Positions 61 through 50,396 of a DNA stretch of 64,000 bases are shown here, piece by piece. Origin of the DNA: Girardia tigrina (lineage: Eukaryota). Positions within the stretch are counted from its first letter, which is position 1; every line of letters begins with the position of its first letter. The stretch covers positions 17,797 to 81,796 of the forward strand of contig MQRK01236006.1 of NCBI GenBank assembly GCA_001938485.1, in the 5' to 3' direction. The notes under the pieces were generated by a model, which was given only the letters and a program-made list of their open reading frames with translations, searched no databases and was not told the DNA's origin. Made by a program: the position numbers and the translations under genes.

Positions 61-99
61 GACCTGAAGATGACGGTAGATCCGTCGAAATATATTGTC
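61..99 (+). ncRNA. Minimal type I hammerhead ribozyme (PLE-type)
   Basis: GAC-CTGAAGA-T-GACGG(TAGAT)CCGTC-GAAA-TATA-TT-GTC: full core, stem II GACGG/CCGTC, palindromic stem III ATATAT, stem I GAC/GTC; predicted cleavage after position 96. Confidence 0.8.
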
Positions 100-1384
100 T
101 TAAAATATATTTTTAAATGTATGACTTTGGTTATTATTATTATTATTTTTATAATTTTATTATTTTAATTATTTTTATTTAATTAATCCATAAATAAAGA
201 AAATGTGTTTACACAACTTTGTATCAATAATTAACTCAGTGAAATAAAAATTAATTTAAAAAAAAATTTCTAGACATAAATGTGACGAAATATTTTTGAC
301 TAAAAAATAACCTTTTCGGGAGAATATCAGGTGGCCAGCTCGGGTCAACAGCCATTGAAATAATAGTCAAATGCCAAATTGTCAGTTTTCATCAAATTTT
401 CCAAAATCCATGTAGAAATTTCACGAAAAAATATTTATTGAAAAAATAGGAAAAAAAATGTTTTACAAAAATATTATTTATTAGTATAAAAAAAAGAAAG
501 AAAATTATTTTAAATGAAAGAATTTTTCAAATTAACTTTGAGTTGAATTCTTTTTAATTTCGATTTTAATAAAATATTTTAGTTTATTTCAATGATAAAT
601 GTAAAATAATTAGTAGAAATACTGTTTACTCTAATGAGAACCGGAGATCAAAAATTGGAGATAAATAAATGAAAATTCCATCTGGCTAAATAATGGGGTC
701 GATCATTAAATCAGTTGTTTACTTCTGAAAGATTCGACTTGTACTTTTACAATCATTACTGTTACCAAAAAGACTTAGGAAAATATCCTTTGATGGTCTG
801 ATGATTGCAGAAAAAAAATAAAATATTCAACATCCTATAAATACTAAATAAATATAAAGAGAGTAATGATAAACTAATATAAGAGAGCAAAACACTAATG
901 CTTTAAACGAACCTACATATTCACTTAAAAATATTTACTACAAAAGTATAAATTTGACAACAAAAGCTGTAGGAAATAATTATTAGACGTTTAATTTAAT
1001 TAACTTATTGATTGTTGAAGATTGAACAAGGTGGTCACGTTTTATTAAATTGTATTTAATATTATTTTGACATAAAACCAAAATATATGTCCCCCCAAAA
1101 CCAGGAAAAAAGTTTATTTTCGAGTGTTCTTTTCAACTATAAAGTAAATTGAAGTCGTTGTCTTGAAAACATTATTTTTAGAACAAGATAAAAAGTTATT
1201 TATTTTCACCATTACGCAATAAAAATGTTTTTATTAAATTTAAAGTATTTTTTAGTAATTTTTCAGATAAACTTTCAGAATAAATTTAATTGATATTAAA
1301 AGCCTCTCCCGGCTGTGACAGATAAATAAATTATTTAAAATATACTATCATAATAAATTAAAAATAAATTTAGAAATTAAATCA

Positions 1385-1467
1385 GTCATTTGAGTGGGAG
1401 AGACACAATCTCAAATCAACACGCAACATTCCAACACAAAACATCAACATTCTAAAATTTCTTCACA
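1385..1467. repeat. Fragment of dispersed LTR-like repeat with TGTGAGGAAT-type terminus
   Basis: gggagagacacaatctcaaatcaacac...aaaatttcttcaca resembles 35935-36010, 50940-51024 and the reverse complement of 59146-59230. Confidence 0.6.
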
Positions 1468-2662
1468 ATATATGTTCTGAATAGAGATTAACACTTTAAC
1501 TTAAAATAAAAGCATACTTGATCCGTGAATGTTTTTAATTTTACTAAGCATCTTTTTTCTTTTTTTTAGACCTTAGCCGTTTGGCTGTGGGTGCGCCTAA
1601 TTATGCACTAGCCTTATGACTTGGGTTTTGCATATTTCTTTGAGTGTCTAAGTAGGCAAATAACCTGGTGATGCCTATCACCTCTTCAGGTATGGATGGC
1701 TGTTGGCTCCAAAGAGCTCATCGCCCTTTGACAGGTTTTGTTTTTCATCCTGTTGGGTGTCCACACATCCTCTTCACCCAGGTTGCTCTGAGTGAGGGAG
1801 CCGGTTCAGTCGCCAAATATCCGATCATGGGACAGGTAGTACAGATTTACATGGTGCCGGTTAAAGGTATGCTTACCTTAGCTGACCTGAATAGTCAAAA
1901 GCCCAGAGAATTCCCTATCGGTCACTAGTTTGGCAAAACACTAAAAAATCTTTCCAGAATAAAATTAAATACAGACATATTTATATTTTTATTAAAGTAC
2001 TTACTATTGTTTTGTTGTTTTTGTAATTGTTAGTTTGTCACCAAAATACTGTAAGTCCGTTTTCACACATTCAGCTTTTAAGAACTACAAAATTCATAAA
2101 TAAAACTCTTAGGACCCCATGATATTTTTTTACCTATAATAACACTGTAAATTTAATTTTGAATTATCCTGTCCCGGTCAACCATCAATCCCGTTATTAA
2201 TTGACACTACTGGAAAGACAATTCCAACTATATATCATTTTACCAACTGTGACCCTTCATTTAGCGGAAAATTTCGATATTTACTTGTTTTCAGTTTCAT
2301 CAGGGCTTGTAGGTTAGAGTTGGAATTTTAAAGAGTGGTAAATTCGTCCCAATCTGACCCCCTTTACTTTATAATTTTAAGATTTGACTTGAAATTTTTA
2401 ATTGTAAATGTTTATCATTCATTTGAAATTAGATCGACATGAAACTTGAAAACATGTCGTGATGCACCAAATTTTGTTGACTTGTATTTGTGCATTTAAT
2501 TTAACCTAATTAATTTCCGAAACTTATGGTTGATTGTATTTAGGAAAAGAAAAAGTGATTGCAACAATAAAACCCTATGAGCTTCTAAAGCAACTCATTC
2601 AGTGGTTCAACCTTTTTTTGGATTTTTAATTCACATAAATCGTATTTTTTTCTCTTTTATAT

Positions 2663-3357
2663 GAATAATTGAAAAAATATTTTGTTATACTTTTTTAAGA
2701 AATGAATTATTGAACATGTTTTGAAGTTTTATACTCCATCAACATAAATTATAATTTAAAATTTATTATTTTTGTTGTGTTGCTACATTTGCTACATTTC
2801 TAACTTTTGTTATATTTGTTATATTTTTAAATCTGTAAAATCAGTTAAGTTTTTATGGTGTAAAAAATTAGGTTATATTTTTTCATATGTGCAAATGTTC
2901 TTTATTTTTTTTATTCGTTAAGGAAAATATATATTATATTAATGTTATTGTTTAAAAGAATAAAAAGCGTTATGAAATACCACAATTTAAAAAATCAATA
3001 ATAAAAATATTTGGAATTTCGTTATTACATTTTTGATATATTATTTTTTGTATTTGATATATTATTTAACTTTAAATCAAACGAAATTATTTAATAAGTT
3101 TTAATGTTAGTTTTATAAAAAAATTTTTTAAAAAAACGTTTTAAAAGAATTAAATTTTTATTTTGTTTTATTAATTCAAGATATTAATAGATAATAATCC
3201 GCCTTTATTTTGTCTATTTTGAATCATTATTAATAAGAAACTACAATATACTAATAAATATTAAATTATAATCGATGATGATGGAGTATGAAATTTTGAA
3301 ATATGTTCAATAATTGATTTCTTGAAAAAGTTTCAAAAAATATTTTTGAAATATTAG
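2663..3357. repeat. Degenerate inverted-repeat pair (~80-bp arms), probable old MITE
   Basis: 2663-2741 is an imperfect reverse complement of 3279-3357 (tgatggagtat...atgttcaataatt.atttctt.aaaaagt). Confidence 0.5.
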
Positions 3358-3390
3358 AAAATCGCCGTTCAGAAGACTCATTAATATATA

Positions 3391-4743
3391 CAGTCTATCC
3401 TCGTTTCCGGGGCATTCTTTATAGTGGGGCACCTTGATTTCTGGTGAAATTTTGGTTTTTGGGGCAAGTTTTAAGATAATCACACTATTACCTATTATTT
3501 ATATTGTGTTTTTATTCCAAAAGTACAATTATGTTTCGTTTTTGGAGCATATTTTTTAACCTAAAAATAATATTTAATCTTGGTCTGAAATAAGTATCAA
3601 AATTTCCCCAAATTTAAAATATTACAAGCTTTTTTTTAAAAAGTTTTGTTAAATTTTATGTTAATTTTTTTTTAAATTTATATTAAATTTTGTAAAAAAA
3701 ACATTATCCCCAATGACGAAATTGCGAAATGTTTGAAGGATGGAAAAACAATAGAGTGAAAATTAATTGAAAAATTTTCTACAAGTAAAGGTGCCATTTT
3801 TAGAATTAAAAAGAATTTAGACAATATTCTTAACATTTGGGATGAAAGAAAATGTGACAAGCAAAAATCAGGAGAAACTATGAAAGAAAATCCATTTAAT
3901 AAATATAAAGAGCTTAATGGTTTGGTCTTGGAAGTTTTTAATCGCCTAAGATCTTCATCGATTCCATTAAATGGAACGATAATGAAAACCATCGCTGTGA
4001 AAATTGCAAAAAAAAACTTGGATTAGAAAACGTCAAGGTGTCTAATGGGTGGATGGAGAATTAGAAAAAACGGAATAAATTGGAGTTTAAACGAATTGCC
4101 AGTGAATCAAGATCTGCTGATTTGGAACTATGAGGGGTTAATTTAAATTTCCATCTCGCCAGAATAATTTATTATTTTTTTTTTAATTTAAAGGTCAAAT
4201 ATTTTAATGTTAATATGTGTATTAAATATTTAAAAAAAATAAAAAAATGATATAATAAAATAACTATTAAAAAAATCAAATACGTTCTTAAAAATAAAAT
4301 ATGTTTTTAATGTGTTTTTTTTAAAAATATTTCAAAAATTAAAAATGATAAAATAAAAGAAAATCTTAAAAAATTAAATATCTATTTAAAAATAAAAAAA
4401 TATCTTTTAATGTGTCTATTAAATATCTTAAAATTAAAAATGTTAAGAAAACCATTAAATATTAAATATTTATTTTATAAATAAAAAATATTTTTACAGT
4501 CATAACAATTTATATATTTTAATAAATTTTGATGTTAAAAAAATGAATCCTGATATTGAGGTTGCAACCACTTCTCACAGGAACATTTAGATGAATTTTA
4601 CGATGTTCTTAAAAAAAATTGGAATAAATTTTATTTAGTTTTTCTATGTTTTTTAATTTTTTGGATTTTTTTTGGTTTTTGGGGAATTCTTGGTTTTTGG
4701 GGCAAAATTTGATATTTTTTGCTCCAAAACCGAGAGTGGACTT
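3391..4743 (+). mobile_element. pogo/Tigger-like DNA transposon remnant (CENP-B-type HTH), interrupted by an LTR-like insert
   Basis: Imperfect TIRs CAGTCTATCCTCGTTTCCGGGGC / GCTCCAAAACCGAGAGTGGACTT flanked by TA; 3760-4128 translates (one frameshift, one stop) to ...FNRLRSSSIPLNGTIMKTIAVKIAKK/LGLENVKVSNGWMEN*KKRNKLEFKRIASESRSAD, the Tigger/CENP-B HTH signature. Confidence 0.75.
4129..4579. mobile_element. LTR-like (solo LTR) repeat family A, copy 1
   Basis: Ends TATGAGGGG...CTTCTCACA with exact 5-bp TSD GGAAC (4124-4128, 4580-4584); homologous to 23726-24128 and 38871-39439. Confidence 0.75.
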
Positions 4744-6312
4744 TATATATATAACATTTATTAAACGTTTACTAAACACTTCAAAATAGTTTTTTAATCA
4801 TTTTTGATACAAACTAGGTGAAGTTGTACCTTAAAGGAAAATATGAAATCATTTATGTTTTCTTATTTAAATAAACATGATTTTTGCATTTTTCAAGTAT
4901 AAGTGTAGTATAAGTGTAAAGGATGTAAGTTATTATTCTCCTCTTAAGAAACTGAAATAACTATTAAATATAAAAAATTTATATTCTTCTTTTTGTAATT
5001 TTAATAATTAATTAAAATATTGTTAAATGCTCATCAATGTAAAGACGACTGATGAAATATTTTCAACAGTTGTTAAGTATTTGATATTCTTACTAATTAA
5101 TCATATCGAATTAATTAAGTTATTTTCTATTTCAATATAACTAACTATTTTAAATTTGAGAGCTTAGATTTTTGTTATTTTATATTTTTATTATGCTATC
5201 ATTTTGAAATCTTTTGGGACGATTTTGTTGAAGAATTTTTTGTTTATGTTATGCTCTCCTTTTAATTATTAGTCATAGGAATACATGTTTTAAAGTATTT
5301 AAAGTTTTCAAGAATTTTATTATTTAATTATAAAATGAAAAACTAAATTACAAATTATATTGAAATTCAACTTTTTATCAAAACTCAATGAGAACTAATT
5401 TTTTCAAAGTCAAACTTACTTTATTTTTTAAAAAAAGATTTTAAAGAATGTTTTATAGTTTTATATACTTAACAAGAAGCTGAGCGGTAAAAGTTAATCA
5501 AAACTCACTTTTTTGTTGACTCAAACTGGTAATAATAAAATAATGGAGCGCCTTTAGTTACTTACATAACCTACAGTCTGACAAAAGGTTCTTGTAAATA
5601 AAAAGATAAAAGATTGTTATTTCTTGCTTAACCGCCAATATTTAACTTCATAAAATAAAAATATCAAATTCTCGTAATTTTCTTTTAGTTTTCTCCATTA
5701 AAAGAAATTAAAAATTAATCAATAAATTAAAAAAAATTTATAAAGATAAATCAAACCAACTGTTCAAAATTTACGATCGTAGTTTAAGTTTTATGAGACA
5801 TAAAAATTTCGAATGAATTTCGTTTCCCAATAGGGAAAGTTGGAAACGGGTTGAATGTTACTCAATTATGCAAAAGCAATTTGAACAGAAATTTGCGTAA
5901 TTAAATAATTTAATTTAAACAAAATATTTATTGTAGTTTATATTATCATTTATTTTTCCCAAAGTTTCTGTAACAAGACATCGTTTTACGATGGTATTCT
6001 CTTTTTGAAGAAGCACTTTCTCTGGAAGTGGTTTAAGAAGTTCAAGCAGTTGATGGAATTAGCAAACCTTTGTTGCATGATTTTTATTTTCTTAGTTTAA
6101 AAACCATATTTAAAAAGAAAAATAACAAGAAAAACAAATGTAATTTATTTCTTTTAAAATATTCCCACGAGTTTAATACTTTTCTTCAACTGATGTGGTA
6201 AGTTTTTCATATTTTTTCAATTTTTTAACACTCATTTCTTTTGTTCTTTTATTATCTCATATTTAGATATTAATCTAACATATTTCAATGTATCTATATA
6301 TATATATATATA

Positions 6313-6780
6313 CATTGTAAGGTAGAATCTATATAATAGGGATAAAAACAAGACGACGCGTTTCGAGATAATAATAATCCCATCATCAGGTCACAAAATG
6401 TACTAAGCAAGTACACTATATGGAAATTTGCTGGAAATAAATAAAATTAATCCAATAAATTATTGGATGAAAATAACTTTATTTCACTTTTCCTTAAAAT
6501 TAAGAAAAATGCACTAAATGCAATCAGTCTCATTCTCGCAAACCAACCATTGGCAGCTATCAATTGCCATTTGAGAAAACGATATGTTTTCTCTATCGTT
6601 CCGTACTTTACAAGGTAACGGAGACATATGATAAAGATGACAACTAACAGCACACCAAAAGCTAATCTTTGAGATGAAACTTCTCATACTCAATACAATC
6701 AACTCAATTTTAGCCTTCCCATCACACCCAAAACAATCCGTTACTTTGTAAACTACGGAACCTAAAATTGGTGAATATCA
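6313..6780 (-). mobile_element. Hammerhead-bearing repeat (PLE-like end or non-autonomous derivative), copy 1
   Basis: Colinear with 44729-45150 over ~400 bp; contains the hammerhead at 6352-6392; abuts (TA)n. Confidence 0.6.
6352..6392 (-). ncRNA. Minimal type I hammerhead ribozyme
   Basis: Reverse complement GAC-CTGATGA-T-GGGAT(TATTATT)ATCTC-GAAA-CGCG-TC-GTC: intact core, GUC cleavage triplet, palindromic ACGCGT stem III. Confidence 0.88.
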
Positions 6781-6793
6781 TGATTTGTTGCTA

Positions 6794-7538
6794 TTAGGTT
6801 GTCCTAAAAGTTCCCGGTCAAGAATAAAAAATACATTTTCTGTGCAAGAATTTATTTTAAATAAATAAATAAATAAATTAATCTTCAAGGCAGGGTACTT
6901 CTGCTTGAGCTTCTCGTAGACACAGTCCAGCTGTTGACAATAGAGCTCTGCATTGATGGCCTGGCCTTTCTGAACCAACTCAAAGTGTACGACTTTGACC
7001 AAGTAGACCCACTTCTCGTCCGACGTCACAATTCGCTTCCAAAAGTGGTCATCTCATAGATTCTGTAGTAGTTGTCGGCAAATTTGGACTCTTTTATAGG
7101 CCTTTGCTTTGGTGAGTTCGTGTGGATCTTGACGAGGTTTCTTGTTCACAAAGTCGATCTGCTTCAAATGCCAATGTATGGTTAACTTGCCAATTCCAAG
7201 CTTAAATGCCAAATTGCGAGTGCTTGACGAAGGCTTCATGTCCAAATCTGCTTGCAAGTCATCGTTATCTAATTTTGTTGGTCGTCCAGAACCAGGACCC
7301 ATTCAAGTCAAAGTTGCCTTTACCAATCAATTGCCATACTTTTTCCGACCGTTTGTGTACCTTCAACTTAGGAAATTGCCTTGGCAGCATCTCGTGTTGT
7401 CAAGCCTTTCTTCCAATAGTGACGTAGCAACACACAATAAATAAATCTATATATATATATATATATATCAAATAAATAATGCCAAAAAGAAATTTGAAAG
7501 AAATTTATTATTGACCGGGAACTTTTAGGACAACCTAA
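6794..7538 (-). mobile_element. Internally deleted mariner transposon
   Basis: Perfect 28-bp TIRs TTAGGTTGTCCTAAAAGTTCCCGGTCAA with TA TSDs; remnants GSGRPTKLDNDDL, DPHELT, VTSDEKWVY, INAELYCQQL. Confidence 0.92.
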
Positions 7539-8651
7539 TATGTAGCTTTTAGCTTCATAATTTTTTCTGTGACTTTAATACTTTAAATATACTTGATTAA
7601 GCCATTTTTTAACGTTCTTTTCTTTGAACTGAAGAAACCTACAATTTTTCTGTTTCCCTGTTACAATTATTTGAAAAAAACTCTTATTAAATTTTAGATA
7701 AATTTCAATTTCTTTGTTTTACTCGACAAATAAATTACACAAAAAAATCAACTTTGAAATTATCAATAAAATCGAAACTCAACTTTATCATTTGCAAAAT
7801 ATCTCCAAATCCGATCAAAATATTTTACAAATCTCTCAATTCTGTCTCGCGTTCGTCTATCGAATGAAGTGCGATTATTGCGATATTTATACGAAATTGC
7901 AGAATGAATTATCGATGAACTCGCAATTTTCTAACAGTTTGCGGATTTAATATATATTTTTACTACTTGTCTTAAAATTAATATTTTATGAATCCTGAAA
8001 ATGAGGATCTTCTTTTTTAATCATTTGCTTGATTGTTTTTATTGATTTAATTAATAAAAATGTAATTAGAAAATAGCAAATCATACATATGTATATGTAT
8101 ACTCCAAAATAGAGAGATCTTTCTGAAATTAAAGCGTTTAGAAGGGTGTGGTTTATACATGGTTTTTGCGGGTTTTAAAAATCATAGACTGCTGGTTATA
8201 ATCAGAACTTTAGGATATTTTATTATAGATTTTTATTTCTCATGTAAATTATTTTTGCTGATGATATGTAATATTATAAGAAAATCTTAATGCAAATCTC
8301 AAAAGACGGCAAATATTTGATTGATTATCAAAAAAGAAATAAAATAAGTTTAAAATAAATCAAACAACGAAACATGTGGCAAAGTTATATGAGGTTATCC
8401 AAGCGCACTTCCAATGGAATCACATACTTTACTTTTTCGTGTGGATTTTTTCATGTCCATTTATTTTTTTAATTCCCTGACATTGTTGTTTGTCGAGCTC
8501 AATAATAATATGAAACTGTTTACTAGAGTTTGTTTTTAACAAAAAACGTCTTTTAAAATGAATTAATGTCTGCTATTTAATGACAGTAAAAAATTATTTG
8601 GTATTTAAACATGATTACTTCCATCTTTTAACAGAGCAAGTACATAATAAC

Positions 8652-8740
8652 TGCGAGGAATATTTTAAATTGTATGAATGAGTGAATGTATTGATGCTGT
8701 ATGTTGATTTAAGTATGTTGAACTTAGAATGGTCATTCTA
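8652..8740. repeat. TGTGAGGAAT-type LTR-like terminus fragment
   Basis: Reverse complement matches 33995-34087. Confidence 0.55.
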
Positions 8741-8814
8741 GTGATTAACTACTCAAACAGAATTAAAATAATAATTTGACAAGAGTATATTTTTAAAATT
8801 AACAATTAAAATCG

Positions 8815-9146
8815 GTTCATGGCCGAAATTTCTAAAAACCAAATGTTCTAAAACAAAAATTTCTTAAACGAAAATTTCTAAAATCAAAATTACCCTTTAT
8901 GAAGTACTTTGCAATTCATCTTCAATTTAATCAGAACCAGACGTGGTGAGATTTGTAAGTTATTTTGAGGATAATTGGATTGGAAGATGCGACCATAATA
9001 GCAATCGCAGAAAACCTGTACTTAACATGTGGAATTCTTATGATAATGTCATAATTGGATTTACAAAAAAAAACAATAATAATTTCGAAGGATGGCATCG
9101 AGGTTTTAGTGAATTAATAACATCATTCCACCAAAGAACAAAATAA
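8815..9146 (+). mobile_element. Mutator-like (MULE) transposase C-terminal remnant preceded by short tandem subrepeats
   Basis: YFEDNWIGR...MWN..D......KNNNNFEGWHRGF matches the MULE WN...RTNNxxEGWH motif; ~15-bp AAATTTCTAAAA repeats at 8825-8890. Confidence 0.6.
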
Positions 9147-9162: not shown

Positions 9163-12100
9163 TTGGGCTGTTGCATAAGTTCCCGTTACATGAAACTATT
9201 TGTTCTACAAAGACCTTTTGATGTTTGACGAAGTGTTATATGCCATTAGATAGCCCGTGCTATGTTCTACAAGATTAAAGTAATTCTTTTTGCCTATATA
9301 ATTTTTTTGTCTTTTTAGAACGGTCAAATGGATTGTCAAGACTACAAAAATCGCATTTTCGACACCTTCTTTTCGCATTTAATTTAGGTCAAAAAGCGAG
9401 TGAAGCTACCAGAGGTACTTGTGCAATGTATGGAGAGGACGCTATAGCTGAGAGAACTGCTCGGGATTGGTTTTCCAGGTTCAAACACGATAATTTCGAC
9501 CTCAATGACGCTCTTTGTTCCGGAAGACCAGTCGAGATGGACGAAGACCAACTCGGGGATCTTTTGAAGGAAGATGGCTGCCAGATATGCAGGCTGAAAA
9601 GATGAATTGTGATTTTGCGACAATGTCACGCCACCTTCAGTCAATGAGTTTCACTCAAAAGTGTTGCGGTCGAAAAACCCATTTACGTATTTTAACATAA
9701 TTACACAAACACACAAACACAGCACTCAGCAAACAGAAGGAAAAGAAAGTCAGTAAAATTTAATACATATATTTAACGAACATGACAACACTACAGTAGA
9801 CGAGTTTCAGAACTGTCGAGGCCCACCAGAAGGTCGGTAGGGCATCGAAGACGTTGAATAAGAACTAAAACTGTAACATAAAGAAAATAAACAAAGTCGA
9901 ATAAAAACTTACCCGATGATGAAAATCGAACAATCACCCCTCCACAGTTGGAGCATTGCGAAGCGCACATATGACGGTGACCCGTAAGAACGTAGAAGAT
10001 CCCTGAGAGAAGTTATAAACCTTAAAAGAATAAAAAAATTAATCAATAACTAGATCGAAAAGGATGAAGTCCCTTACTGGAATACCCAGTAGAGTTGGGG
10101 GTCAACCGACCCTCTCCGAACAGCCCCTCACACGACGAGTCCCTGAGTGGAACTTGTGAGACGACGACAGATCCCCGAAAAAAGTTATCGGTCCTGAAAG
10201 AGCAATAATTAATTAAGAATCAGACAGAAAACAATAAACTCCCTCACCGGGGTATCCAATAGAGTTAGGAGATCAACCAATCCTCACATGAAAGAGCATC
10301 GCGAGTACAATTCCTGAGCGAAGATATAACTCCTGAAAGATTCAAAAGTCAATTAACAAATATAAAATAATTAATTAAACTTACCATGACTCAACAGTAA
10401 AACACGAGATCACCTGACGACCATGAATCACCATGAATCATCGGTGAATAATCCGCACGTGTGTCCTGAAAATATTAACGTATGTGTCGACATACAATTA
10501 CAAAATTCTATAGTAAATCAAAAATTACCAAAAATTTTTGAAGGCACACGAACAAGCCCGACCAACCAGCATCACGGAATTTTGCAGTCTTCTTGCTGGC
10601 ACAAGGCAATTGGCCGAGAAGAGACAACAGGACAACCTATCCATGGTATAAAATGAGAATCATTTTTCAACTAAGTCGCACATTTTTGAAATAAAAACCA
10701 ATTTTACGTTTACGCATAACGTCGAGATATCACGCTACCAAAGAAGTTTCGAGTGAAAGCAGTTGATCCATGAGCACACCGCAGACGAAAGAGCGACAAC
10801 CTATCCTTGAAGACCGGCGATATCAACGAGCGAATTTACGGCACCGAGAGAGTAAATCCCAGATCCTAGTGCAGACTTACCGACGAACGCTTCAACCGAT
10901 TGACACGCTGACGAGGGAAAACCATTCAAATCTCACCGATCGACGATTGAGCCAGCGAACCTCCGGATACCTATACCGATACTGTAATTTTGATTAATTT
11001 TTAGAAACATAGTTGATTAATTTTATTTATGTTAATACATGTATTTGACCAATTCTTGTTAAGTTATAATAAATTTATTCAATTATTTCTTATTTGATCC
11101 ATCGAATTTTAATAAATTAATTGTTACCATATAAACAACAGTGGTTTGGTCTGAATATAAACAGTCTATGAGTATGTTCCTGATTGAAATTAATACCCGT
11201 CAGTCTGATTAAAAGCCAATAACAGCTCGAACACCCATTCCTTCGGAGCCGTAGTTGATCATTAGTTCTCCGGTCGCCGTCCGCGTCGCCAGTGAATATC
11301 TAGAGATGCAGGTCCATGTTATTCAAAAGAAATTCCAATTTGTAGTTAAATTTACAAATTTCCGAAGAGTTTCAAACCGTCGAGCGGTTTGTAGGGCGAA
11401 CCTTAGACTATTCAAACAAATAAAATTTCCCGTAAATAAAAGTCCTATTAATTAGCGATTTTTTTTATAAAATTTTGATACTAAATAGAATTTTTATAAT
11501 AATAGAGTTTTTGAATTATAAAGTAGAATTTTTATAGTCATTGATTTTTACATTTAATTCTAATATGGTGATTTTATAGTAATAATATGGTAATTTGGAG
11601 TTAATTTCTTTCCATTAACTTTACAATGAATCAGTTTTATGATGAATTAATTCTAGTGAACTTACCAATTTCGAATGATTATTAAAATTATATAGTGAAT
11701 GATGATTAGAATTTTTATAATGGATTTTATGAGATTAGAATTACTAAAGAAAAATACGAATTGTTGATAGAGGTTTTCACAAGTTTTACAATAGGAATTT
11801 TGACTAATTAATGAATAATGCATAATTTGACAGATAAGTAACGAACAATCGATAAGTTGAAGGAGTTTAGATAAATCAGTAAATGTCAATAGACTTATAA
11901 TCCTGTTGTTGATGAGTCCATGGCAAATGTATTGATGATGTTTTAGCAACGAAAACGAGCGACTAGGAAGCAAATTGATGACCTAAATTAGTACGGCCGA
12001 TAGTAAATCAAAGCGATCCTATGGCGCATCAATACGAAGTAGATAAAATGTGATAAAACGATAGTACAATAATATTTAACGGTCGATATCATGAATATAA

Positions 12101-13130
12101 TAATAATTCCCTTTAGAAATACATCAGTGCCTCAAGCCTACATGCAGACACACCACATAACAGTGCCACAAGTTGAAAAAATGGACATATCGATTACATT
12201 GAACAGACATGAGCGATACATACATCTAGGGAATATATCACATACCCCTATTGATACTGACCCAGGTGGGGGGCCAATCGTCTATCCCATCTTGAACCGA
12301 ACCCGAAGGCCCTTCAAGCTCGGCACTGCCAGTCAGATGTCGAGTAAGAAGAGGCGTCCGACCCTATTACTGACGAATCTCCTGAAAGAATAAACAACTT
12401 CTTAAAATAACATTGGGTTGTGGTTGACCCTTAACAATCACTGGGGGCTCTTGAGCTATCATAAATGTTTGCACTCGAGAGGGTCATGGCAAAAGCTTGG
12501 TGCTTGGGTCCCACACGAACTCACCCAAAAACAGAAGGATAAGCGGCTTTCCATTGCTGCTCAAAATCTCGCTCAACACCAAGGAACCCATGACCACAGG
12601 CAACGTTTCTTATACAGAATCGTCACTGGAGACGAGAAATGGTGTCTCTATGTGAATATGAAGCAAAGGAAAGAGTGGGTGAGTCCTGGAGAGAAGCCTA
12701 AGCCCAGGATCAAGAAAGACCTGCAACCGATGAAGAAAATGATTTGCGTATGGTGGGATTGGGAAATGCTTGGAAAGAACATGACAGTAGAAAAACATCT
12801 CTATAAAGCCCAATGAGGCAATTCAACAAAAGACCATTCAACAAGGCCAGGTGATCCTCCGCCATGACAATGCTCGACCACACACCGCAAAAACCGTCAA
12901 GATGGCACTCCAAGAGCTCGGTTGGGAGGTCCTTCAACATCCTCCCTACTCCTCAGACCTCGCCCCGACGGATTACCCTCTCTTCCGCTGCCTTTCAGAT
13001 GAAATGAGGGGTCTTAGCTTCGAAAATCAGGATCATCTTGAGAATTGGCTCAACAACTTCTTCGAGACTCGACCTAAGGATTTCTGGCGAAATGGAATCA
13101 ACAAACTGGTGGAAAGATGAGAAGAAATGA
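9163..13130 (+). mobile_element. Mariner transposon pseudogene split by a 2.83-kb insertion
   Basis: Left TIR TA|TTGGGCTGTTGCATAAGTTCCCG; N-half 9333-9661 (HFRHLLFAFN, ARDWFSRFK, SGRP); C-half 12492-13120 (KLGAWVPHELT, TGDEKWCLY, HDNARPH, PPYSSDLAPTDY); right TIR not found. Confidence 0.92.
9662..12491. mobile_element. 2.83-kb TG...CA insertion with 4-bp TSD (large solo-LTR-like)
   Basis: TSD AAAG at 9658-9661 and 12492-12495; removing the insert and one TSD restores mariner ...FTQK|LGAWVPHEL; no gag, pol or transposase motifs inside. Confidence 0.8.
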
Positions 13131-15316: not shown

Positions 15317-16060
15317 TATAATACATAAATACAAGGAGATAAGTTATTTCGGTAAATTTGGTTCTAATTGTAATTCTAAGAAATTAAATTATTTAAAAGA
15401 AAATATTAAATAACAAATAATAATAAAAATAATTATTTCAAATTAATTCTAGCTATAAATATATGATTGAGGATTTATTCACAAAAATCGAATTTTATAA
15501 AATAAATTTAACCTCAATGTTCAAAAGTCAATTATTCTTAATTTATTTTGAAAATTTAATTAAACTAAATTAATCTGAGAAATTTAAATAAATTAAAATA
15601 CAAAATATTAAACGAGACTTAAGTTTCGTTTTTACAAGGACAGTTTATTTTTCAATTAATTTCTAACTTTTTAAATATTGTTTTCAAAATAACGTCTCTC
15701 CGGAAAACCTAGCTAAATTATAAATTTAGAGAGAAATAAAGTTTTCAATTTTCAATAAATAAAAATCATATTTTTTATAATTTTTATTATTATTCTGTTT
15801 TTAGAATTGTCTCATAATTATTTTTATGGAGGGCTTTTTCGTAAAATTCACAAAATAATCACTTTTTTCTCATGACTTTTTCAGAAGTATAGTTTTCCAG
15901 AACCCGATAGCAATGTGTGGATGAAAAATAGAAAAAAAATCCTACAGTTTTAGAGTTTGAGAATATATATTACAATTTTTAAATAATTGAGAAAAAACAA
16001 AATAAAATTTTTTTGAAGAAAGGAAACTCAATGGTTGAAGCTGCTCTTATCCATCTAAAT

Positions 16061-23418: not shown

Positions 23419-23455
<37 letters not shown>
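23419..23455. repeat. (TA)n microsatellite abutting a PLE end
   Basis: Direct reading. Confidence 0.95.
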
Positions 23456-23457
<2 letters not shown>

Positions 23458-26578: not shown

Positions 26579-26599
26579 TATGTATATATATAAGCCACT

Positions 26600-29228: not shown

Positions 29229-29369
29229 TGTAATTTCACCAGAAATAGAACACCACTAAACAACAAAAAAGTTTATTTAAGTACAACACAAAAAATCAAA
29301 TTCTGTTTTTACGTTTTTTATCACGTATTTAAACTAATTTTATTTCGAATATTTAACAGCATTATTATA
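29229..29369 (-). repeat. Putative 3' LTR (141 bp) of the Gypsy element
   Basis: On the minus strand it follows the purine run GGCGGGGA (PPT-like), begins TATAAT (eroded TGTAAT), ends ATTACA and contains AATAAA. Confidence 0.6.
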
Positions 29370-32670: not shown

Positions 32671-32679
32671 AAAACATTT

Positions 32680-32779
32680 AAATATTTGTTCATTAATTGG
32701 AAACTGCGATAATCAAAAATGCACAACCAAAAATAAGGGGGATCGTATACACGGGGATCTTATACACGGAAAAATACGG
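32680..32779. mobile_element. Terminal fragment of a pogo-like DNA transposon at the Gypsy 5' breakpoint
   Basis: ...TATACACGGGGATCTTATACACGGAAAAATACGG|TA, a TA|CCGTATTTTTCCG-type TIR with a subterminal repeat. Confidence 0.5.
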
Positions 32780-37051: not shown

Positions 37052-38170
37052 TTGGGTTGGCCAAAAAGTCATTGCGTTTTTTCCTAAAATATTTATTATC
37101 AAAAAATGACATGAATGCACAAATATCTTTTCACAATATACTGTCCATTATTTTCAATCACTTTCTTCCACCTTTCCGGTAGCTTCATTATTCCTGATTC
37201 ATAAAAACCTTTGCCTTTGTTAGCAAAAAAAGCCATCTAGGAACGATTTGATGTCATCATCAATAGCGAATGTTTTTCTGTTTAAGGAATTCTGCAGTGA
37301 TCTAAATAAGTGAAAATCCGATGGGGCCAAGTCTGGAGAATACCGTGGGTGCGGCAAAACCTCCGAACCCAGTGATAAGAGTTTCTGGCGAGTGGTTAAA
37401 CTTGTATGCGGTCTTACTTTATCATACAACTCCTTTTCTATTTGCCAATTCAGGACGTTTCTGTTTAATTGAATGAGCCAATTTCTCCAGCTGACCACAA
37501 TATCTGTCTGAATTGATGGTTTCATTCCTCGGAAGGAGTTCAAAAAGCACAATTCCTTTAAAATCCCACCAGACGGAAAGCATAACCTTCTTTTGGTGAA
37601 TTTCTGCTTTTGGGATCGTTTTGGCAAATTCACCACATTTTGTCCATGATCGTCGGCGTTCCACATTGTTGTAAACAATCCATTTTTCGTCACCCGTAAT
37701 CAAGCGCTTCAAAAATGGATCACTTTGTTCTCACTTCAAAAGGGAATCGTAAATGTCTATACGTTTCACCAAATGAATTTCTTTCAGTTCATGTGGTAAA
37801 CACATATCGAGTTAACTGACGAATCCAAGTTTCTTTAAATGATTTAGAAAACCAGTTTTGACACTGTCGAAGTTTTAAGGAGTCACTATCATATACAAAA
37901 CATATCATCTTGTGAGCTTGCACAGCGGTTTTTCCTTTGCGAAAATAATGCAACAAAACATGACGAATATGCTCATTTTGATTTTCCATTTCGAATTGAT
38001 GGTAAAGTAAAAAATTAAAAACAAAATCAATTAATATTTTGTATAAACATAGTCTGAAAATTAAGGTTTCAGAATATATAATTGAATTTAAATTTTATCA
38101 CATCGTTTTATATTTTCAAGCTTTTTATTAGGACATACTCAAAAGCGTAATGACGTTTTGGTCAACCCAA
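37052..38170 (-). mobile_element. Mariner transposon with internal deletion and frameshifts
   Basis: TIRs TTGGGTTGGCCAAAAAGTCATTGCG / CGTAATGACGTTTTGGTCAACCCAA with TA TSDs; MENQNEHIRHVLLHYF, ITGDEKWIVY, HPRYSPDLAPSDFHLF. Confidence 0.93.
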
Positions 38171-38870
38171 TAGTTAAAATAAGTTTAGGTAATAAAATAT
38201 TTTTTAAATCGAAATAATGATAATAAATAAAACGTTAAACTCTTTTTTGTTAATTTAGTTAAAATAAATTTTGTTGATTTTATATTTTATTTCAAATTAA
38301 ATTTTATCAAATAGTAGAATGTTAATCTATAAAATTAATGAAAAAAATTTCAATTTTTAAAATATCGGTTCTAATAAATAGCTTATCAGTATTTATAATT
38401 CCATATTTTTATGTATAAGAAATCTGGTCAAAAGAAAAGAAAGAAAAGTTCCTCGACGAAAAATTTTTTAAATAATTTTTAATTGTGTTATAAATAAATT
38501 TCGGTGTTAATGAATTATAATCTTGATCAAGAACCCAACAAGAGCCGTACCACGGTTCATTTTCATAATCTCACTGAAATACTCCCCGTATATCTTTTAC
38601 ATTGATTTCTCAATAACGATTCATTTCAATTGAAAGAAATGGAAGGCTCAATGTTCGGTCAAAACGCGGAGAAAATGGAGAGGAAAATTAAGTGTTTGAC
38701 CGAAAATATTGCCAGTTTGAATATAAATTAAATGTAAATAAATTTAAATAAAATAAATTAAATAAAATCATTAAATTGAAATGAACTAAATAAGTAAAAT
38801 AAATTAAAAATTAAATAAATTATTTAAATTAATGAGTCAATAAAATAAATTAAGTTAAAATAAACGAAAT

Positions 38871-39439
38871 TTAAATTTTTATCTCGCCTGAACAATTTAT
38901 TAATTTTTAATTTAAAGGGTAAAATATTTTTATGTTAATATGCTTATTCAATATTTTAAAATTAAAAATGATATCATAAAACAACTATTAAAAAATCAAA
39001 ATCGTTTTTAAAAATAAAATATTTTTTAATGTGTTTTTAAATATTTTAAAAAAATTAAAAATGATATAATAAAAGAAAATCATAAAAAATAAAATATCTA
39101 TTTAAAAATAAAAAATATCTTTTAATGTATCTATTAAATATCTTAAAATTAAAAATGTCAAGAAAACAAAAATATTAAATATTTATTTATAAATAAAAAT
39201 ATTTTTAATAAACAATTTTAAAAAAACTTTGAAATAAATTTTGATAATAAAGTTTAAATAATTTTTGAAATAAATATTCAGGATTTTAAAAATTAAATCG
39301 AAAAAAATGTAATAGATTAATTTGGGTCGAGATAATTAAATTGACAAGAAAATTTGTTTCAAAGATGTGAATTGTTATATAAATAAATATTGGTGTTAAA
39401 ATATGAATCCTGATATTGAGGTTGCAACCACTTCTCACA
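38871..39439. mobile_element. LTR-like repeat family A, copy 3
   Basis: Ends CTTCTCACA; GAAAT on both flanks (38866-38870, 39440-39444); about 14 bp missing at the left terminus. Confidence 0.7.
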
Positions 39440-42427: not shown

Positions 42428-44638
42428 TTAGGTTGGTCGAAAAATAATGGCGGTTTTTGAGCTTTATACTTTGTTTATCTACTTTAATATGTATATAAGT
42501 TTAAATGCATTAGTGTTAGATATTATTTGAAATCTTTTACCTAGCTGTATATTCCTATAGCCATTATTAACATATTGCTGTTATTTATAGAATATTTACG
42601 GTGCTAAATTAATAATTGAAAAAATTAAAATTCGAGCAATTTTCTTGTACGAATTTAAACTTGGTCGTAAAGCAGCAGAAATGGCTCGCAATATCAATAA
42701 AGCGTTTGGCAAGGGAACAGCTTCTGAGCGCACAGTGCAACGATGGTTCCGAAAATTTTCTGATAGAGATGAAAACCTTGAAGATGAAGAAGGTCGTGGT
42801 CGTCCAGTTGCTGTGAACAACGACAATTTGAGGACAATGGTGCAAACAGATCCTTGTACAACAATCAGAGAACTTGCAGATGGGTTGGGCATTAGTCATT
42901 CAACAGTCCTAGATCATTTATATAAAAACACTAATTCAACAATAGAACTCGTATTACGTTGAATTAATTGTTTTTATATATTTGTCTGTTTAGTAAAAGG
43001 GTAAAAGTCCGGCAGCAATTAAACTAGGCTAACCAAAGTGCAGAGTTTGGTGAACCTAGTCGTATTTTATACAAAACTAAATAGTAAAAAAACCAAATAA
43101 TTTTTATCAAATACTTTTAATGTAACTAATTTAACAGTTAAATAGAAGTAGTATAAGTACCGTGGTGTAACTGAACAAAATAATTTCTGATTAATAGTTA
43201 GGATAATCGTAAGTATTTGTCAAACAAATATAGTGACGCAATAATCATCGGATAAATTCGTCACTAGGATAATTGTAAGTATTAGTTAGAACTAATATCG
43301 TCAAAAAATACAAATTCGTCACTGGGATAATTGTCCGTTAAAGATTATTCATGTCGTCAGGTAAAATATATTTCTGGCATTGATCTCAGTTTGAATTTTT
43401 AATTCAAACGAAAATCGATCAAAAATTATAATTTAGTTTAATTATAATTTAGTATTATAAATATAATTCCGTCATGTTTTCTTTTACTCTTTCTACTTCA
43501 TGTTTTCTTATCTTCTTTTTTTTAAATGGAAAACAGTGAACTTTTTTTCGGTGACATCTTTTTTTTCAAAATAAATATAGGGTAAGTATTTCCTTCCTAA
43601 AAAATGGTTAGTTTCTTCTTTTAGTCTGGTTTGAAAATTGTCAAAAAACATTGAAAAAATAATAAGAAAATAATCATTTAAAATTTGTACATCATTTCTC
43701 GACCACCAACATTGTGTCATAAATAAAAAATAACATAAAAAAATGAATAAAAAAAAGGACCATGTAGATCTTATCACAATGTAAAAAAACAAAAAAATGA
43801 CAAAAATCACACGTAATAACGACAAATAAAAATGTATACAACACTCGAACGTCATGCTGTACAACGGAAATATAAAAGTAAACATTACAAGAAAGGCTCA
43901 CATAACATTTAAAACAACTTGGAAAAATCAAGAAACTTGATAAATGAATTCCACATGATTTGAATGAAAATCAAAAGAACCGACGCTATGAAATTTGTTC
44001 TGCCAATCATCTTCGCAATAAAAACGATCCATTTCTTGATCGTATTGTTACCTGTGATGAGAAATGNNNNNNNNNNNNNNNNNNNNNNNNNNNNNNNNNN
44101 NNNNNNNNNNNNNNNNNNNNNNNNNNNNNNNNNNNNNNNNNNNNNNNNNNNNNNNNNNNNNNNNNNNNNNNNNNNNNNNNNNNNNNNNNNNNNNNNNNNN
44201 NNNNNNNNNNNNNNNNNNNNNNNNNNNNNNNNNNNNNNNNNNNNNNNNNNNNNNNNNNNNNNNNNNNNNNNNNNNNNNNNNNNNNNNNNNNNNNNNNNNN
44301 NNNNNNNNNNNNNNNNNNNNNNNNNNNNNNNNNNNNNNNNNNNNNNNNNNNNNNNNNNNNNNNNNNNNNNNNNNNNNNNNNNNNNNNNNNNNNNNNNNNN
44401 NNNNNNNNNNNNNNNNNNNNNNNNNNNNNNNNNNNNNNNNNNNNNNNNNNNNNNNNNNNNNNNNNNNNNNNNNNNNNNNNNNNNNNNNTGCTGATGGAAT
44501 AAAACAACTTGTTTCTCGTTGGCAAAAATGTATTGATGCCAACGGTTCATACTTTGATTAATAAACTTTTGTTTCTGTGAATTTGCACGTCTTTGATGTT
44601 TGTGTCCAAAAACCGCCATTATTTTTCGAACAACCTAA
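42428..44638 (+). mobile_element. Mariner (Hsmar1/cecropia-like TIR) split by a ~1-kb insertion; spans an N-gap
   Basis: TIRs TTAGGTTGGTCGAAAAATAATGGCGGTTTTTG at both ends with TA TSDs; YEFKLGRKAAE, TVQRWFRKF, IVTCDEK, RWQKCIDANGSYFD. Confidence 0.93.
42921..43907. mobile_element. Unclassified ~985-bp insertion within the mariner
   Basis: Flanking duplication (CA)TTTA; removal restores VLDHL|KQLGK; internal short tandem repeats (ATTCGTCACT.GGATAATTGT) at 43190-43340. Confidence 0.7.
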
Positions 44639-44728: not shown

Positions 44729-45150
44729 ACATTGCAAAGTAAAATCTATATACAAAGGATAAAAATAAGGCGATGTGTTTTGATATAAGAATCCCATCAT
44801 CGGGTCAATCCACAAAATGTTCTCAACTGGCACACTAGACGGGACTATACAATAATTTTAAAATATTTAACTAATAAATCATTGAATTAAAAGAATTAAT
44901 TTCATGTTTCTAAAAATTAGGCAACAATACACTAAACGCAATCAATTCTATTCTCTTAAATCAACCATTAGCAGATATCGATTGCATTTGAAAAAACTAT
45001 ATCTTTACTCTATAGTTCTACACTTTACAAGATAACGGAAACGTATGTTAAAGATAATGACAGACGGTCAACCAAAAGTTAATCTTTCAGATTAAACTCA
45101 CATTTGTTCCCATACACTCAATTTCAGCATTCTTATCAAACCCAAAAAAT
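44729..45150 (-). mobile_element. Hammerhead-bearing repeat, copy 2, with an inactivated ribozyme (44769-44806)
   Basis: Homologous to 6313-6735; motif eroded to GAC-CCGATGA...AAAA-CACA-TC-GCC; abuts (TA)/(TG)n at 44697-44725. Confidence 0.6.
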
Positions 45151-45923
45151 CTTAGTCTTACTTTTTACTTCCCAAACTTTATGATATTTATAATGATTGA
45201 TTAAATAAAATTGAAAAATTCAAATCTTTAAGATTCTTAAGTCTAGGAGAAATTTGAATCTGACGACGATTTAGAGAATTCCGATAATTTCAAGTGTTCT
45301 AATTTCGAAGATGAAAAAAACGAAAAAAAGAGATAAAGTAAATAATCAGACAAATTAGATAATAAGTAAATAATTTTGAATTAATAAATAAAATTAAAAA
45401 AAATAGTGAAAAATAATTAACAACTGTGATTGAATTTTAAAATTTGTAAATATATGTTTGTTTGTGCATGTTTTTGTTTTTGTGAATTAAATAAATATAA
45501 TGTAAATAATTGTACATTGTTTAAATGCATCGATTAAAATAGTTGATACGTGACTGTCACAAATTTCGATTGTGAAATAAATGTGATTTGAATTGATATT
45601 ATTAAATTAAAAAGAATTTGACTAATTTTGTTTTCTTCAATGTCTCATCATTCATTCAACGGTCTCGTCAGAAAAAAAATTCAAATAAAATTAATGATTT
45701 ATTAAAATTTATCTCAAAAAAGAGAATTTTTGTAACCAAACCAGACGGTAGTGGCCTGTATGAACAATTTTTATATTCTATATTGTGATCCAAATTGAAT
45801 TATTACTCATAAGTTATTTAAAATAATTTTTGAAACAAATTTCACTCCATCAAGCCTCCCTCTATTGTTACGGATAACTGTGTATTACAAATAATACTTA
45901 GCATTGGCGCACAGGGTAGTGAA

Positions 45924-47785: not shown

Positions 47786-48933
47786 TGATGTAATGTTATA
47801 TGTTATTTGAAAGCTATTGTTTTGTCAAGTCGACAAAAATGAGCATTTCCGACACCATCTATTGTTTGCGTATAATCGAGGCGCCAAAGCCGCAGACGCT
47901 GTCCGAGAGCTTTGTGCTGTATACGGAGAAGGTGCTATAGCTGATAGAACCGCTCGTGATTTGTTCGCAAAATTTAAAATTGGCAATTTTGATCTCAAGG
48001 ATGCACCTCGTTCAGGACGAACAAATGAATTCGATGAACAGCGTTTGAACAAACTTTTGCATGAAGACGCGTGTCAAACCACTCGAGAATTGGCGGAACA
48101 AATGTATTGTGATCAAAAAACTGTCGTGAACCACCTGAAATCAATGGGAAAAGTTCAAAAAGTGGGAACTTGGGTCCCACATATTTTGACCGAAAACAAC
48201 AAAAACCAGTGATCCACAATTTCGGCGAGTTTGCTTGCCCGTCATCGCTCTACTCACAGTCATAAGCAACAATTTCTTTATCGAATTCTAACGGGTGATG
48301 AAAAATGGTGCCTGTACGTCAACATGAAAAAGCGCAAAGAATGGCGTAGCCGAGAAAAACAATCGATACCGCGAGCAAAACAGGATCTCCATCCACGAAA
48401 GACAATGTTATGCATTTGGTGGGGTTGGAAAGGGTTTATTCATTATGAATTGCTTCCTCGAAACCAAACAGTGAACGCAGAACTTTATGTTCAACAGCTG
48501 CATAGACTCAACGTCGCTATAAGACAAAAACATCTGGATGGACAACATGGCGTTATTTTGCAACACTACAATGCACGTCCTTATATTGCCAGAATGACAA
48601 AAGAAGCCATTAAAACGCTTGGTTGGGAAGTGTTACCGCACCCTCCGTATTCACCTGACTTGGCTCCATCTGATTTTCATCTTTTCCGTTCGCTTTCTAA
48701 CGCTTTGCGATAAACATAACAATAATGGAGAACTGCAAGTTTGGTTGACTGAATTCTTCGAGTCAAGACCGGGCGATTTCTACAAAAGAGGCATTGAAAA
48801 ACTTGTTGAACGTTGGGAAGAAGTCGTGAACAATGGCGGAGATTATATTTGTGATTAATTTGTAGTAACTTTTTGGTTAAAAAATAAAATTTTAATTTTT
48901 CAAAAAACGGAGGGAACTTATTTCTCAACCCAA
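47786..48933 (+). mobile_element. Mariner, same family as 13940-15316; left TIR and start codon deleted
   Basis: Highly similar to 14020-15316; TGDEKW, HYNARPY, HPPYSPDLAPSDFHLF; right TIR GGGAACTTATTTCTCAACCCAA|TA; same TGA after NKNQ. Confidence 0.93.
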
Positions 48934-49759
48934 TATATAATTACACAAATAACTGATTATATATTGTCACAAAAACGTTGAAAAAAACAGTATTTAATTT
49001 TTGATCTTTCATATTTTCAGTTGACGAAAGTGAAGAACCATTTATTGGAATGGAAGACACGTTTATTTTTAGGGTTTCTTTCTCAGAAATATATCCTGAA
49101 AAAATTATTTAAATATACATTTAAATCAAACCATAATCAGAAATTGTTGGACTTTATATAGACATAATAAACATAAACTTGTATTTGGAGTCTTTGATAA
49201 TAGCTCCTAAAATCTCATAAAAAATTCCTCATCGATTGGTAAATTTTTTGCTTATAAGTTGATTTAAATTTTCTGATGTAATTCCTTATTAAATCTTTAA
49301 GCTTCCTCTTCAATAAAAGAATTAAATAATTAATTAATGTATTGTTTTTTTATACAGATTCATCATTTCGTTTCTTAAAACACATAATAACGCATATCTT
49401 TAGTTAAAGAAAAATTATTTTCGTTTGAAAAGAAAAACATTGAAGTAAAACTTTAACAATATCAGAAAAATTTTAATTGAATCTAAATTTACATTTTAAT
49501 AATAACAAAAATTTTCATTTTGAACAAGATGACACAATTTTTTATAAAAGAAATCGGCCAAGTATTTCGAAGGAAGATTCAAAGACATTTTTTCAGCATA
49601 ATGGTTCTAGGTGCTTTGACTACAGGTGCTTTGACCAAAGCACCATAGGGGGTTTGTCCACAGCGGGGGTTTGACCACAGGTGGTTTGAACATAGGTGGT
49701 TTGTCCACAGCTTTTAATATTTTCAAAATATAATTTGATTAAAGCTTCTTTAATATATT

Positions 49760-49803
49760 TATTGGACATGTTTCGATGATTACATACATCATCATTAGCA
49801 ATA
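49760..49803 (-). ncRNA. Minimal hammerhead ribozyme with a G5A core lesion
   Basis: Reverse complement TATTG-CTAATGA-T-GATG(TATGTAAT)CATC-GAAA-CATG-TC-CAATA. Confidence 0.65.
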
Positions 49804-50352
49804 TTTTGAAATTTATCATTTTAATATTTGTATATGATTTTGGCTTGTGTGGGCTAGAATCTAATATTTTAGTTTTTATTAATAATATGATTTTAAAATG
49901 TACATTAAGTTTAAATAGAATATTTTTTTAATATATTTTATTTTATTAAAGTATTATTGGGTAATAATGGCAAAAATATTTTAATTAAAAATTTTAAGTA
50001 TTGAAATNNNNNNNNNNNNNNNNNNNNNNNNNNNNNNNNNNNNNNNNNNNNNNNNNNAAGTATTATTGGGTAATAATGGCAAAAATATTTTAATTAAAAA
50101 TTTTAAGTATTGAAATGACTTTAATGGACAAAGTAAAGTTATTTCAATACTTAAAATTTTTAATTAAAATATTTTTGTCATTATTACCCAATAATACTTT
50201 AATAAAATAAAATATATTAAAAAAATATTCTATTTAAACTTAATGTACATTTTAAAATCATATTATTAATAACAACTAAAATATTATATTCTAGCCCACA
50301 CAAGCCAAAATCATGGAAAACTATACAAATATTAAAATGATAAATTTCCAAA

Positions 50353-50396
50353 TATTTCTGATGATGATGTATGTAATCATCGAAACATGTCCAATA
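50353..50396 (+). ncRNA. Minimal hammerhead ribozyme
   Basis: TATTT-CTGATGA-T-GATG(TATGTAAT)CATC-GAAA-CATG-TC-CAATA; intact core, GUC triplet, mismatch at the first stem I pair. Confidence 0.78.

Follow-up and report, generated by a model that had tools for sequence, protein, structure and literature searches.

Eight hammerhead ribozyme motifs occur in a 64,000-nucleotide (nt) stretch of the Girardia tigrina genome (assembly GCA_001938485.1, contig MQRK01236006.1, positions 17,797 to 81,796 of the forward strand), referred to here as the window. They are very probably minimal type I hammerheads located in the terminal repeats (pLTRs) of Penelope-like elements (PLEs) and PLE derivatives, predicted to cleave only as dimers joined through a palindromic stem III, and the copies in the window are likely inert. 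An earlier sequence-only reading of the window had assigned the motifs to this class, with palindromic stem III and real covariation, and an alignment of 14 families, a genome-wide pattern search and links to PLE enzymes bear it out. The motif class and its connection to PLEs were published in 2014, and the core finding is a gain in annotation. What is added is the copy number, a set of five palindromes that covary, the carriage of hammerheads by a DNA transposon and, most of all, a NeSL-like retrotransposon targeting a ribozyme-bearing repeat. We also put forward a three-tier chain of parasites, a proposal whose prospects we regard as evenly balanced. An old, non-autonomous repeat (family B) would borrow Penelope enzymes, keep a near-private palindrome (ACGCGU) and serve as the dedicated target of a NeSL-like element that switched from host RNA genes, with five covarying palindromes sorting some 40,000 hammerheads into dimer groups.

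Hammerhead motifs in the window and in the genome

The window is AT-rich and transposon-dense and belongs to an assembly totalling 1.43 Gb in 255,254 contigs. All eight motifs were found where the sequence-only reading had placed them, with minus-strand copies listed there by their left ends; here each copy is named by the position and strand of its C3 (Table 1). Every copy carries the extra U between A9 and G10.1 (8/8), and three cut sites put forward earlier (96, 24190 and 50391) coincide with the predicted H17. The shared core consensus holds for six of the eight copies, which keep CUGANGA, GAAA and UH in type I order. 44803(-), previously called dead, is damaged at U4 and G12 (U4C, giving CCGAUGA, and G12A), and 49798(-), previously listed as a consensus copy without a flag, reads CUAAUGA. 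The latter is a G5A change, which inactivates hammerheads. Stem I pairing is conserved among families through compensatory changes, as proposed, but is broken in 50358(+), where the core is intact and the pair next to it is lost (UAUUU against UAUUG in the family). A palindromic stem III is present in six of the eight copies; 26691(-) has lost it (loop CUUA) and has a stem I of 2 bp. Five copies thus retain core and stems, and three, 44803(-), 49798(-) and 50358(+), are defective. The eight motifs amount to six insertions, since 23520(-) and 24162(+) lie in one element and 49798(-) and 50358(+) in another, and the earlier inventory overlooked a decayed head-to-head pair (Table 1).

Two descriptors were applied to the window, a strict one (exact core, stem II of at least 3 bp, stem I of at least 3 bp) and a relaxed one allowing a stem I of 2 bp. 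The strict descriptor gave four matches against none in 100 block-wise dinucleotide shuffles, and the relaxed descriptor five against one in 100 shuffles. Genome-wide, the pattern CTGANGATG-N6-20-CGAAA-NNNN-TH yielded 40,548 matches, whereas the reversed pattern, used as a control, gave 34. A genome-wide descriptor search and a comparison with shuffled sequence had been proposed with the earlier reading, and both uphold it. Chance matching in AT-rich DNA would fit a core of only about 13 fixed bases and an Rfam scan of the window that returned six matches at E<=5, none of them a hammerhead, yet it is refuted by the shuffle and reversed-pattern controls, and the covariation described below also counts against it; we regard it as practically inconceivable. 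The high density noted earlier stands in part: the window holds six matches to the genome pattern where 1.8 are expected per 64 kb (P 0.01, or P 0.04 if the 23520/24162 pair is counted once), a modest excess over the genome mean.

Covariation and palindromes

Covariation was evaluated in 14 families, with one copy per stem type, by comparison with 5,000 column shuffles. The first pair of stem I is formed in 14/14 families with four pair types, II.3 in 14/14, and the palindrome centre in 14/14 with three pair types; each of the three exceeds all 5,000 column shuffles, values that are not probabilities and that overstate significance because the families are related. Differing pair types preserve the first two pairs of stem I, stem II and both pairs of the palindrome; the third pair of stem I is formed in just 10 of the 14 families. 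G10.1-C11.1 is G-C throughout (14/14), but the search pattern fixes that pair. This covariation of stems I and II and of the palindrome supports the predicted dimer pairing. By a hand count among the 100 matches listed, 87 contain a palindromic 4-nt insert (CATG, TATA, TTAA, CGCG or CTAG), which is independent evidence because the pattern leaves those four bases free.

The sequence-only reading had gone further in suggesting that each palindrome could limit dimer formation, and thus cleavage, to its own family. Such a private code would agree with the predicted duplexes of the five hexamers, in which self-pairing (-0.2 to -7.5 kcal/mol) beats cross-pairing (-0.8 kcal/mol at best, the others positive) except for weak AU-only hexamers with self-duplexes near zero. 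It would also agree with the CGCG insert (2,494 genome matches), which belongs to family B in 98 of 100 matches listed, and with one stem II sequence that occurs with both TATA and TTAA, a double change that keeps the palindrome. However, at least 12 stem-II families make use of only five palindromes among the 100 matches listed: CATG is common to six stem-II types, among them those of window families C, C' and D, and at least three types each use TATA or TTAA. Within the window, families C and D both carry ACAUGU, and a code of this kind would be unneeded if pairing occurred in cis on a tandem RNA. We therefore consider family-private palindromes improbable. Instead, the palindromes plausibly sort the families into at most five compatibility groups, as far as the duplex predictions indicate, and only CGCG appears, from the matches listed, to be near-private to one family (B).

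The motifs share with previously described minimal PLE hammerheads the extra nucleotide between A9 and G10.1, the G10.1-C11.1 pair, a short helix I, a palindromic 15.2-16.2 and loop 3, many families per genome, a predominance of solo truncated copies and opposite-strand pairs 100-700 bp apart. They differ in abundance, with about 40,500 strict matches against 2,000-9,000 per genome as counted with other descriptors, in a stem II of 4-6 bp, and in a 4-nt palindromic insert, drawn from five palindromes, in all families sampled. The young families, at least 12 of them with five palindromes between them, form a natural set for matched and mixed dimer tests of the role of PLE hammerheads.

Families A, C and C' and their links to Penelope-like elements

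The view that the motifs mark PLE termini holds for families A, C/C' and D, which are tied to reverse transcriptase (RT) or GIY-YIG endonuclease sequence; it overlooked that two motifs are DNA transposon cargo and that family B has no linked PLE enzyme. Family A lies at the left edge of the window and is followed by (TTA)n at 131-179. The order running into the window in locus L073 is (ATT)n, an inverted family A hammerhead with a tail of about 35 nt, a PLE RT frame, a gap of about 1 kb, the window hammerhead and (TTA)n; the tail is missing at the window end. The RT frame, which is contiguous with the inverted hammerhead, has DKG and SFDISSLFTNVP motifs and a weak Pfam RVT_1 match (E 0.075). 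Excerpts of two reports describe PLEs with such an inverted arrangement and one-sided tail (PMC8557442, PMC3846280).

In family C, 23520(-) and 24162(+) are the two arms of one inverted insertion. The 29-nt core of this family has 1,080 exact copies in the genome, and all same-contig pairs among 100 matches listed are head-to-head (7/7). Copies end in (TA)n, at either a short end or one about 40 nt longer. Upstream, family C carries an RT thumb plus GIY-YIG, the latter with Pfam E values of 3e-4 and 7e-4, slightly below the gathering score, and one RT-bearing homolog was found at E 1e-21. In inverted family C pairs the short arm often halts some 75 nt upstream of the hammerhead, at a shared A-rich tract (L002, L013, L014, L025, L026, L037), and this recurrent stop suggests a preferred inversion point. 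The older family C' copy shares 71.5% identity with family C across 611 nt, and its relatives carry CATG.

RT or endonuclease sequence occurs within 1.5 kb upstream in 32 of 54 family C copies (a set enriched by the endonuclease query), 3/7 family D copies and 2/3 family A copies. A (TA)4 run lies within 125 nt downstream in 37 of the 56 scorable copies, against a background of 2.7%. Among the 28 same-family neighbours in the examined loci, 21 are head-to-head, six tandem and one tail-to-tail. Taken together, these families display the features of endonuclease-containing (EN+) PLEs, namely RT (A), RT thumb with GIY-YIG (C) and GIY-YIG (C' and D). Portions of PMC8557442, PMC11167929 and PMC3846280 describe C-terminal EN+ PLEs of the Penelope/Poseidon type with the same traits: RT followed by a C-terminal GIY-YIG with C..C..H..H, the DKG motif, inverted 5'-truncated copies, a 30-40-bp tail at one end and AT-rich targets. 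Family C differs in having no Zn-finger linker, and the clade is assigned from motifs only.

Two further observations concern these families. Different PLE families insert side by side in a single (TA)n run, forming clusters (L014, L025, L030, L266). In a PLE fragment at 21132-21650(-), a family D-like GIY-YIG piece directly abuts an N-terminal piece resembling family A, the hammerhead being absent from the joint, which would represent a deletion or a chimera.

Family B, a head-to-tail unit that lacks a linked enzyme

Family B reaches the same 3' end in 25/30 loci, nearly always followed by TA repeats. Its unit is about 650 nt long and arranged head-to-tail, as a 643-nt unit in L179 and with 654-nt spacing in L273, and the unit junction is identical in older copies that are 70-78% alike. 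A 534-nt unit joined directly head-to-tail was rejected (0 matches); the unit has about 120 more bases. With the family A RT and family C endonuclease as queries, PLE RT or GIY-YIG was found in 0/52 family B copies (up to 1.5 kb upstream, at least 300 called bases). Family B is therefore likely a non-autonomous PLE derivative, close to non-LTR retrozymes. Like the latter, as parts of two sources describe them (PMC7229834; preprint 10.64898/2026.07.22.740005), it has a short head-to-tail unit, a type I hammerhead and no linked enzyme, and the same parts propose that these retrozymes represent non-autonomous PLE derivatives. In contrast to them, the family B hammerhead is minimal and not canonical, its copies are dispersed, truncated, inverted or partially tandem in (TA)n, and the fragmented assembly showed no long array.

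Several family B copies have an open frame of about 150-170 codons, which starts at the AUG of the hammerhead core and crosses the unit junction (L179:695-1337; L169:1179-1652). The 33 substitutions common to old copies split 14/8/11 by codon position, with no clear codon bias, and the frame has no usable Atlas match. An Rfam scan of the unit gave no hammerhead or other meaningful match. Family B sequence is present in contigs of four runs, two of them only guessed to be RNA, and contigs show no strand, ends or level. Upstream of one family B copy (L084), what appears to be another mobile element contains an open frame that encodes a ubiquitin domain (PF00240, E 1e-17) and, after it, a charged stretch.

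A NeSL-like retrotransposon inserts into family B

Outside the window, a NeSL-like non-LTR element sits antisense at one fixed site of family B (L226-L253, L287, L169-L198). It encodes an Ulp1 protease (PF02902, E 4e-12) and an RT (PF00078, E 2e-19), detected in different copies, and CCHC and restriction-like endonuclease motifs read by eye in a part with no Pfam match. Near homologs carry RT plus Ulp1 and no clade names. The flanks were compared using only the 3' part of the element as a query, which gave 29 scorable 3' flanks (one being the query locus; a thirtieth had N in the marker). The same family B site was matched by 22 of the 29, one matched only its first bases and six did not match. 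Copies of the element 97-98% alike to the query sit in family B sequence of 70-96% identity, with variable 5' junctions, as expected for repeated site-specific insertion, and both junctions of a single insertion are seen in L287. A short pattern recovered 29 distinct family B flanks, with the site empty in 13, filled in six by BLAST, probably filled in five and unclassified in five. Three of the probably filled flanks have one common junction, so filled family B copies may also have been co-amplified. At the DNA level, no piece of the NeSL-like element was found in the window.

We gave thought to family B being a flank carried along by the NeSL-like element and no PLE derivative at all. It would account for family B sequence on both sides of many NeSL-like copies and for the failure to find an adjoining PLE enzyme. 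Set against it are the 13 of 29 distinct flanks in which the site is empty, the antisense orientation of B relative to the NeSL-like open reading frame (ORF), the fixed (TA)n end, inverted pairs and 654-nt tandem spacing that B has of its own, and the closer likeness among NeSL-like copies (97-98%) than in the B sequence around them (70-96% identity). This makes a carried flank very unlikely. The notion that family B is a NeSL-like 3' end inverted by twin priming was ruled out by the empty sites and by a true 3' junction at the fixed site inside B.

NeSL-1 targets spliced-leader genes. For the NeSL/R5/LIN clade, the available parts of PMC4640811 list U2 snRNA, tRNA and 28S rRNA genes and microsatellites, and name transposons as targets only for non-LTR elements in general. 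The element shares with these target-specific retrotransposons Ulp1, RT, a CCHC knuckle, restriction-like endonuclease motifs, precise 3' junctions and variable 5' junctions; it differs in that its target is a hammerhead-bearing mobile repeat, the likeness being drawn from domains and motifs. Searches of papers, with Repbase and subscription journals outside their coverage, found no report of a NeSL-like element targeting a ribozyme-bearing repeat. Targeting of family B would extend the known targets of restriction-like-endonuclease retrotransposons by a new class.

Family D hammerheads as cargo of a Merlin-like DNA element

Free copies of family D are ends of PLEs, preceded upstream by GIY-YIG and followed downstream by (TA)n. 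The two family D motifs of the window instead lie within a Merlin-like non-autonomous DNA element (Table 1), for which 30 loci were examined, 14 of them with both ends. In these 14 complete copies the target duplication is 8/8 in 11 (one in a TA run and uninformative) and 7/8 in two, and one fits 9 bp. Merlin transposons have a terminal GG and an 8-9-bp target duplication according to excerpts of PMC8101967, which agree with the present element also in its internal tandem repeats. Unlike them, it has imperfect ends and an interior made up of a captured PLE end with a hammerhead, and it is likened to Merlin by its ends and duplication.

A typical copy has a single whole hammerhead together with an inverted arm that is truncated, in several cases beside an internal (TA)n. 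This points to a single capture of a family D PLE insertion that then spread as DNA with the Merlin-like transposon. The window copy is atypical, with both arms whole as a fold-back, and a second complete family D-type hammerhead was found in 0/29 other loci. Its left arm contains an N gap with 59 duplicated bp, and its two hammerheads may partly be an assembly effect. One arm may also have been converted by the other, given that they are 92% alike and that the left end retains a terminus of its own. Selection on the hammerhead within the DNA element was not seen (changes in the core, 7/330 or 0.021, against 162/8,080 or 0.020 elsewhere; helices, 9/660), in a test that is weak because changes after insertion are neutral anyway. 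No report of hammerhead cargo in a DNA transposon came up in the same paper searches.

Proposed mechanism and the role of cleavage

In the mechanism we propose, element RNA would span tandem copies, and the PLE protein would nick AT microsatellites and begin reverse transcription just downstream of the hammerhead. Priming at this point would explain why almost all truncated copies retain the motif, frequently as inverted pairs. In an anole PLE, reverse transcription starts at two sites, which define the tail (PMC11167929). With a stem III of only 1-2 bp, a lone hammerhead should be inactive. When two hammerheads share a tandem RNA, or sit on separate RNAs brought together by the PLE protein, their 6-nt palindromes would pair, and cleavage would follow, weakly or aided by protein. 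Compatible partners would fall into at most five groups set by the palindromes, and family B would be moved in trans by PLE enzymes. Head-to-head pairs cannot form a cis dimer because they are on opposite strands, leaving tandem copies (6/28) or two RNAs. No copy in the window has a nearby same-strand partner for a cis dimer, and the window copies are therefore likely inert leftovers.

Several points weigh against this interpretation. Self-cleavage at H17 as a dimer is a prediction from contigs only, with no cleavage or RNA end observed. Excerpts of published work report that a single minimal hammerhead of S. mansoni is inactive and its dimers weakly active (PMC4209133), and that an anole PLE cleaves only with protein, that this cleavage is dispensable for insertion in vitro, and that no RNA-seq ends occur at the PLE cut site (PMC11167929). 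The 14 aligned families are interrelated, and the pattern that found them fixes the core as well as G10.1-C11.1. The window copy of family A is tied to RT only across an assembly gap of about 1 kb, the link of family B to PLEs is by anatomy only, 19 of the 56 scorable copies have no nearby microsatellite, and among the examined loci there is no intact full-length PLE, RT and GIY-YIG never occurring in one intact ORF.

Given the dispensability of cleavage in vitro, the fold might be kept as an element that binds protein or positions the RT, or as a signal by which the two RNAs behind inverted insertions dimerise, with cleavage incidental. The fixed short distance at which element 3' ends lie past the motif and the dominance of head-to-head pairs speak for such a structural role. 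All catalytic core nucleotides are nevertheless common to 14 families with differing stems, though the search pattern demands them, and Naiad PLEs make inverted insertions without canonical hammerheads, as part of PMC8557442 relates. On balance we find a purely structural role somewhat unlikely, and dimer-dependent cleavage remains the reading that we favour.

Features of the window

Table 1. Hammerhead motifs and the elements that carry them in the window
Feature	Position	Strand	C3/predicted H17	Details
Family A hammerhead, intact	61-99	+	64/96	3' end of PLE extending upstream beyond the window; stem I GAC/GUC, stem II GACGG/CCGUC, palindrome AUAUAU
Decayed hammerhead remnant	2705-2750	-		Left arm of head-to-head pair, inverted repeat I8
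Decayed hammerhead remnant	3270-3313	+		Right arm of same pair, inverted repeat I8
Family B copy	6313-6740	-		5'-truncated, 93% identical to the ~650-nt unit, ending (TA)n
Family B hammerhead, intact	6352-6392	-	6389/6355	Palindrome ACGCGU
Family C left arm	23454-23590	-	23520/23492	Intact hammerhead 23489-23523 (ACAUGU); short 3' end joined to (TA)n
Family C right arm	23591-24248	+	24162/24190	Last GIY-YIG ORF codons, 3' UTR, intact hammerhead 24159-24193, ~40-nt tail; split by repeat
Unrelated repeat nested in family C right arm	23726-24128			Other copies near 4129-4487 and 38460-39400
Family C' PLE end, older	26591-27256	-	26691/26662	Decayed GIY-YIG; hammerhead 26659-26694, loop CUUA, 2-bp stem I; ends (TA)n
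Old family B copy (72%)	44733-45151	-	44803/44772	Damaged hammerhead 44769-44806 (CCGAUGA, G12A); ending (CA)n/(TA)n
Merlin-like non-autonomous DNA element	49603-50545			943 bp, GG...CC ends, 8-bp target duplication AGCATAAT, subterminal tandem repeats
Family D hammerhead inside DNA element	49760-49803	-	49798/49765	G5A
Family D hammerhead inside DNA element	50353-50396	+	50358/50391	Core intact, first stem I pair broken

The repeat nested in the family C right arm is AT-rich with an internal repeat of about 95 bp, and a piece of it also lies inside one Merlin-like copy (L067). A decayed LTR-retrotransposon-like element with zinc knuckle, RT and integrase pieces identified by Pfam occupies 29365-32759(-). 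Mariner-type transposase remnants occur at 6890-7400, 9279-9605, 12406-13120, 14020-15320, 37220-38094, 42591-44560 and 47786-48937, one confirmed as PF01359 and the others recognized by eye; those at 14020-15320 and 47786-48937 are 94-97% alike. Long inverted repeat pairs (56794-58786, 35593-36006/59150-59561 and 16779-17162/50610-51011) are probably DNA transposon ends or dispersed copies. Finally, a 189-codon open frame at 22465-23034(+), with a hydrophobic, membrane-like stretch and no Pfam match, is possibly a host exon.

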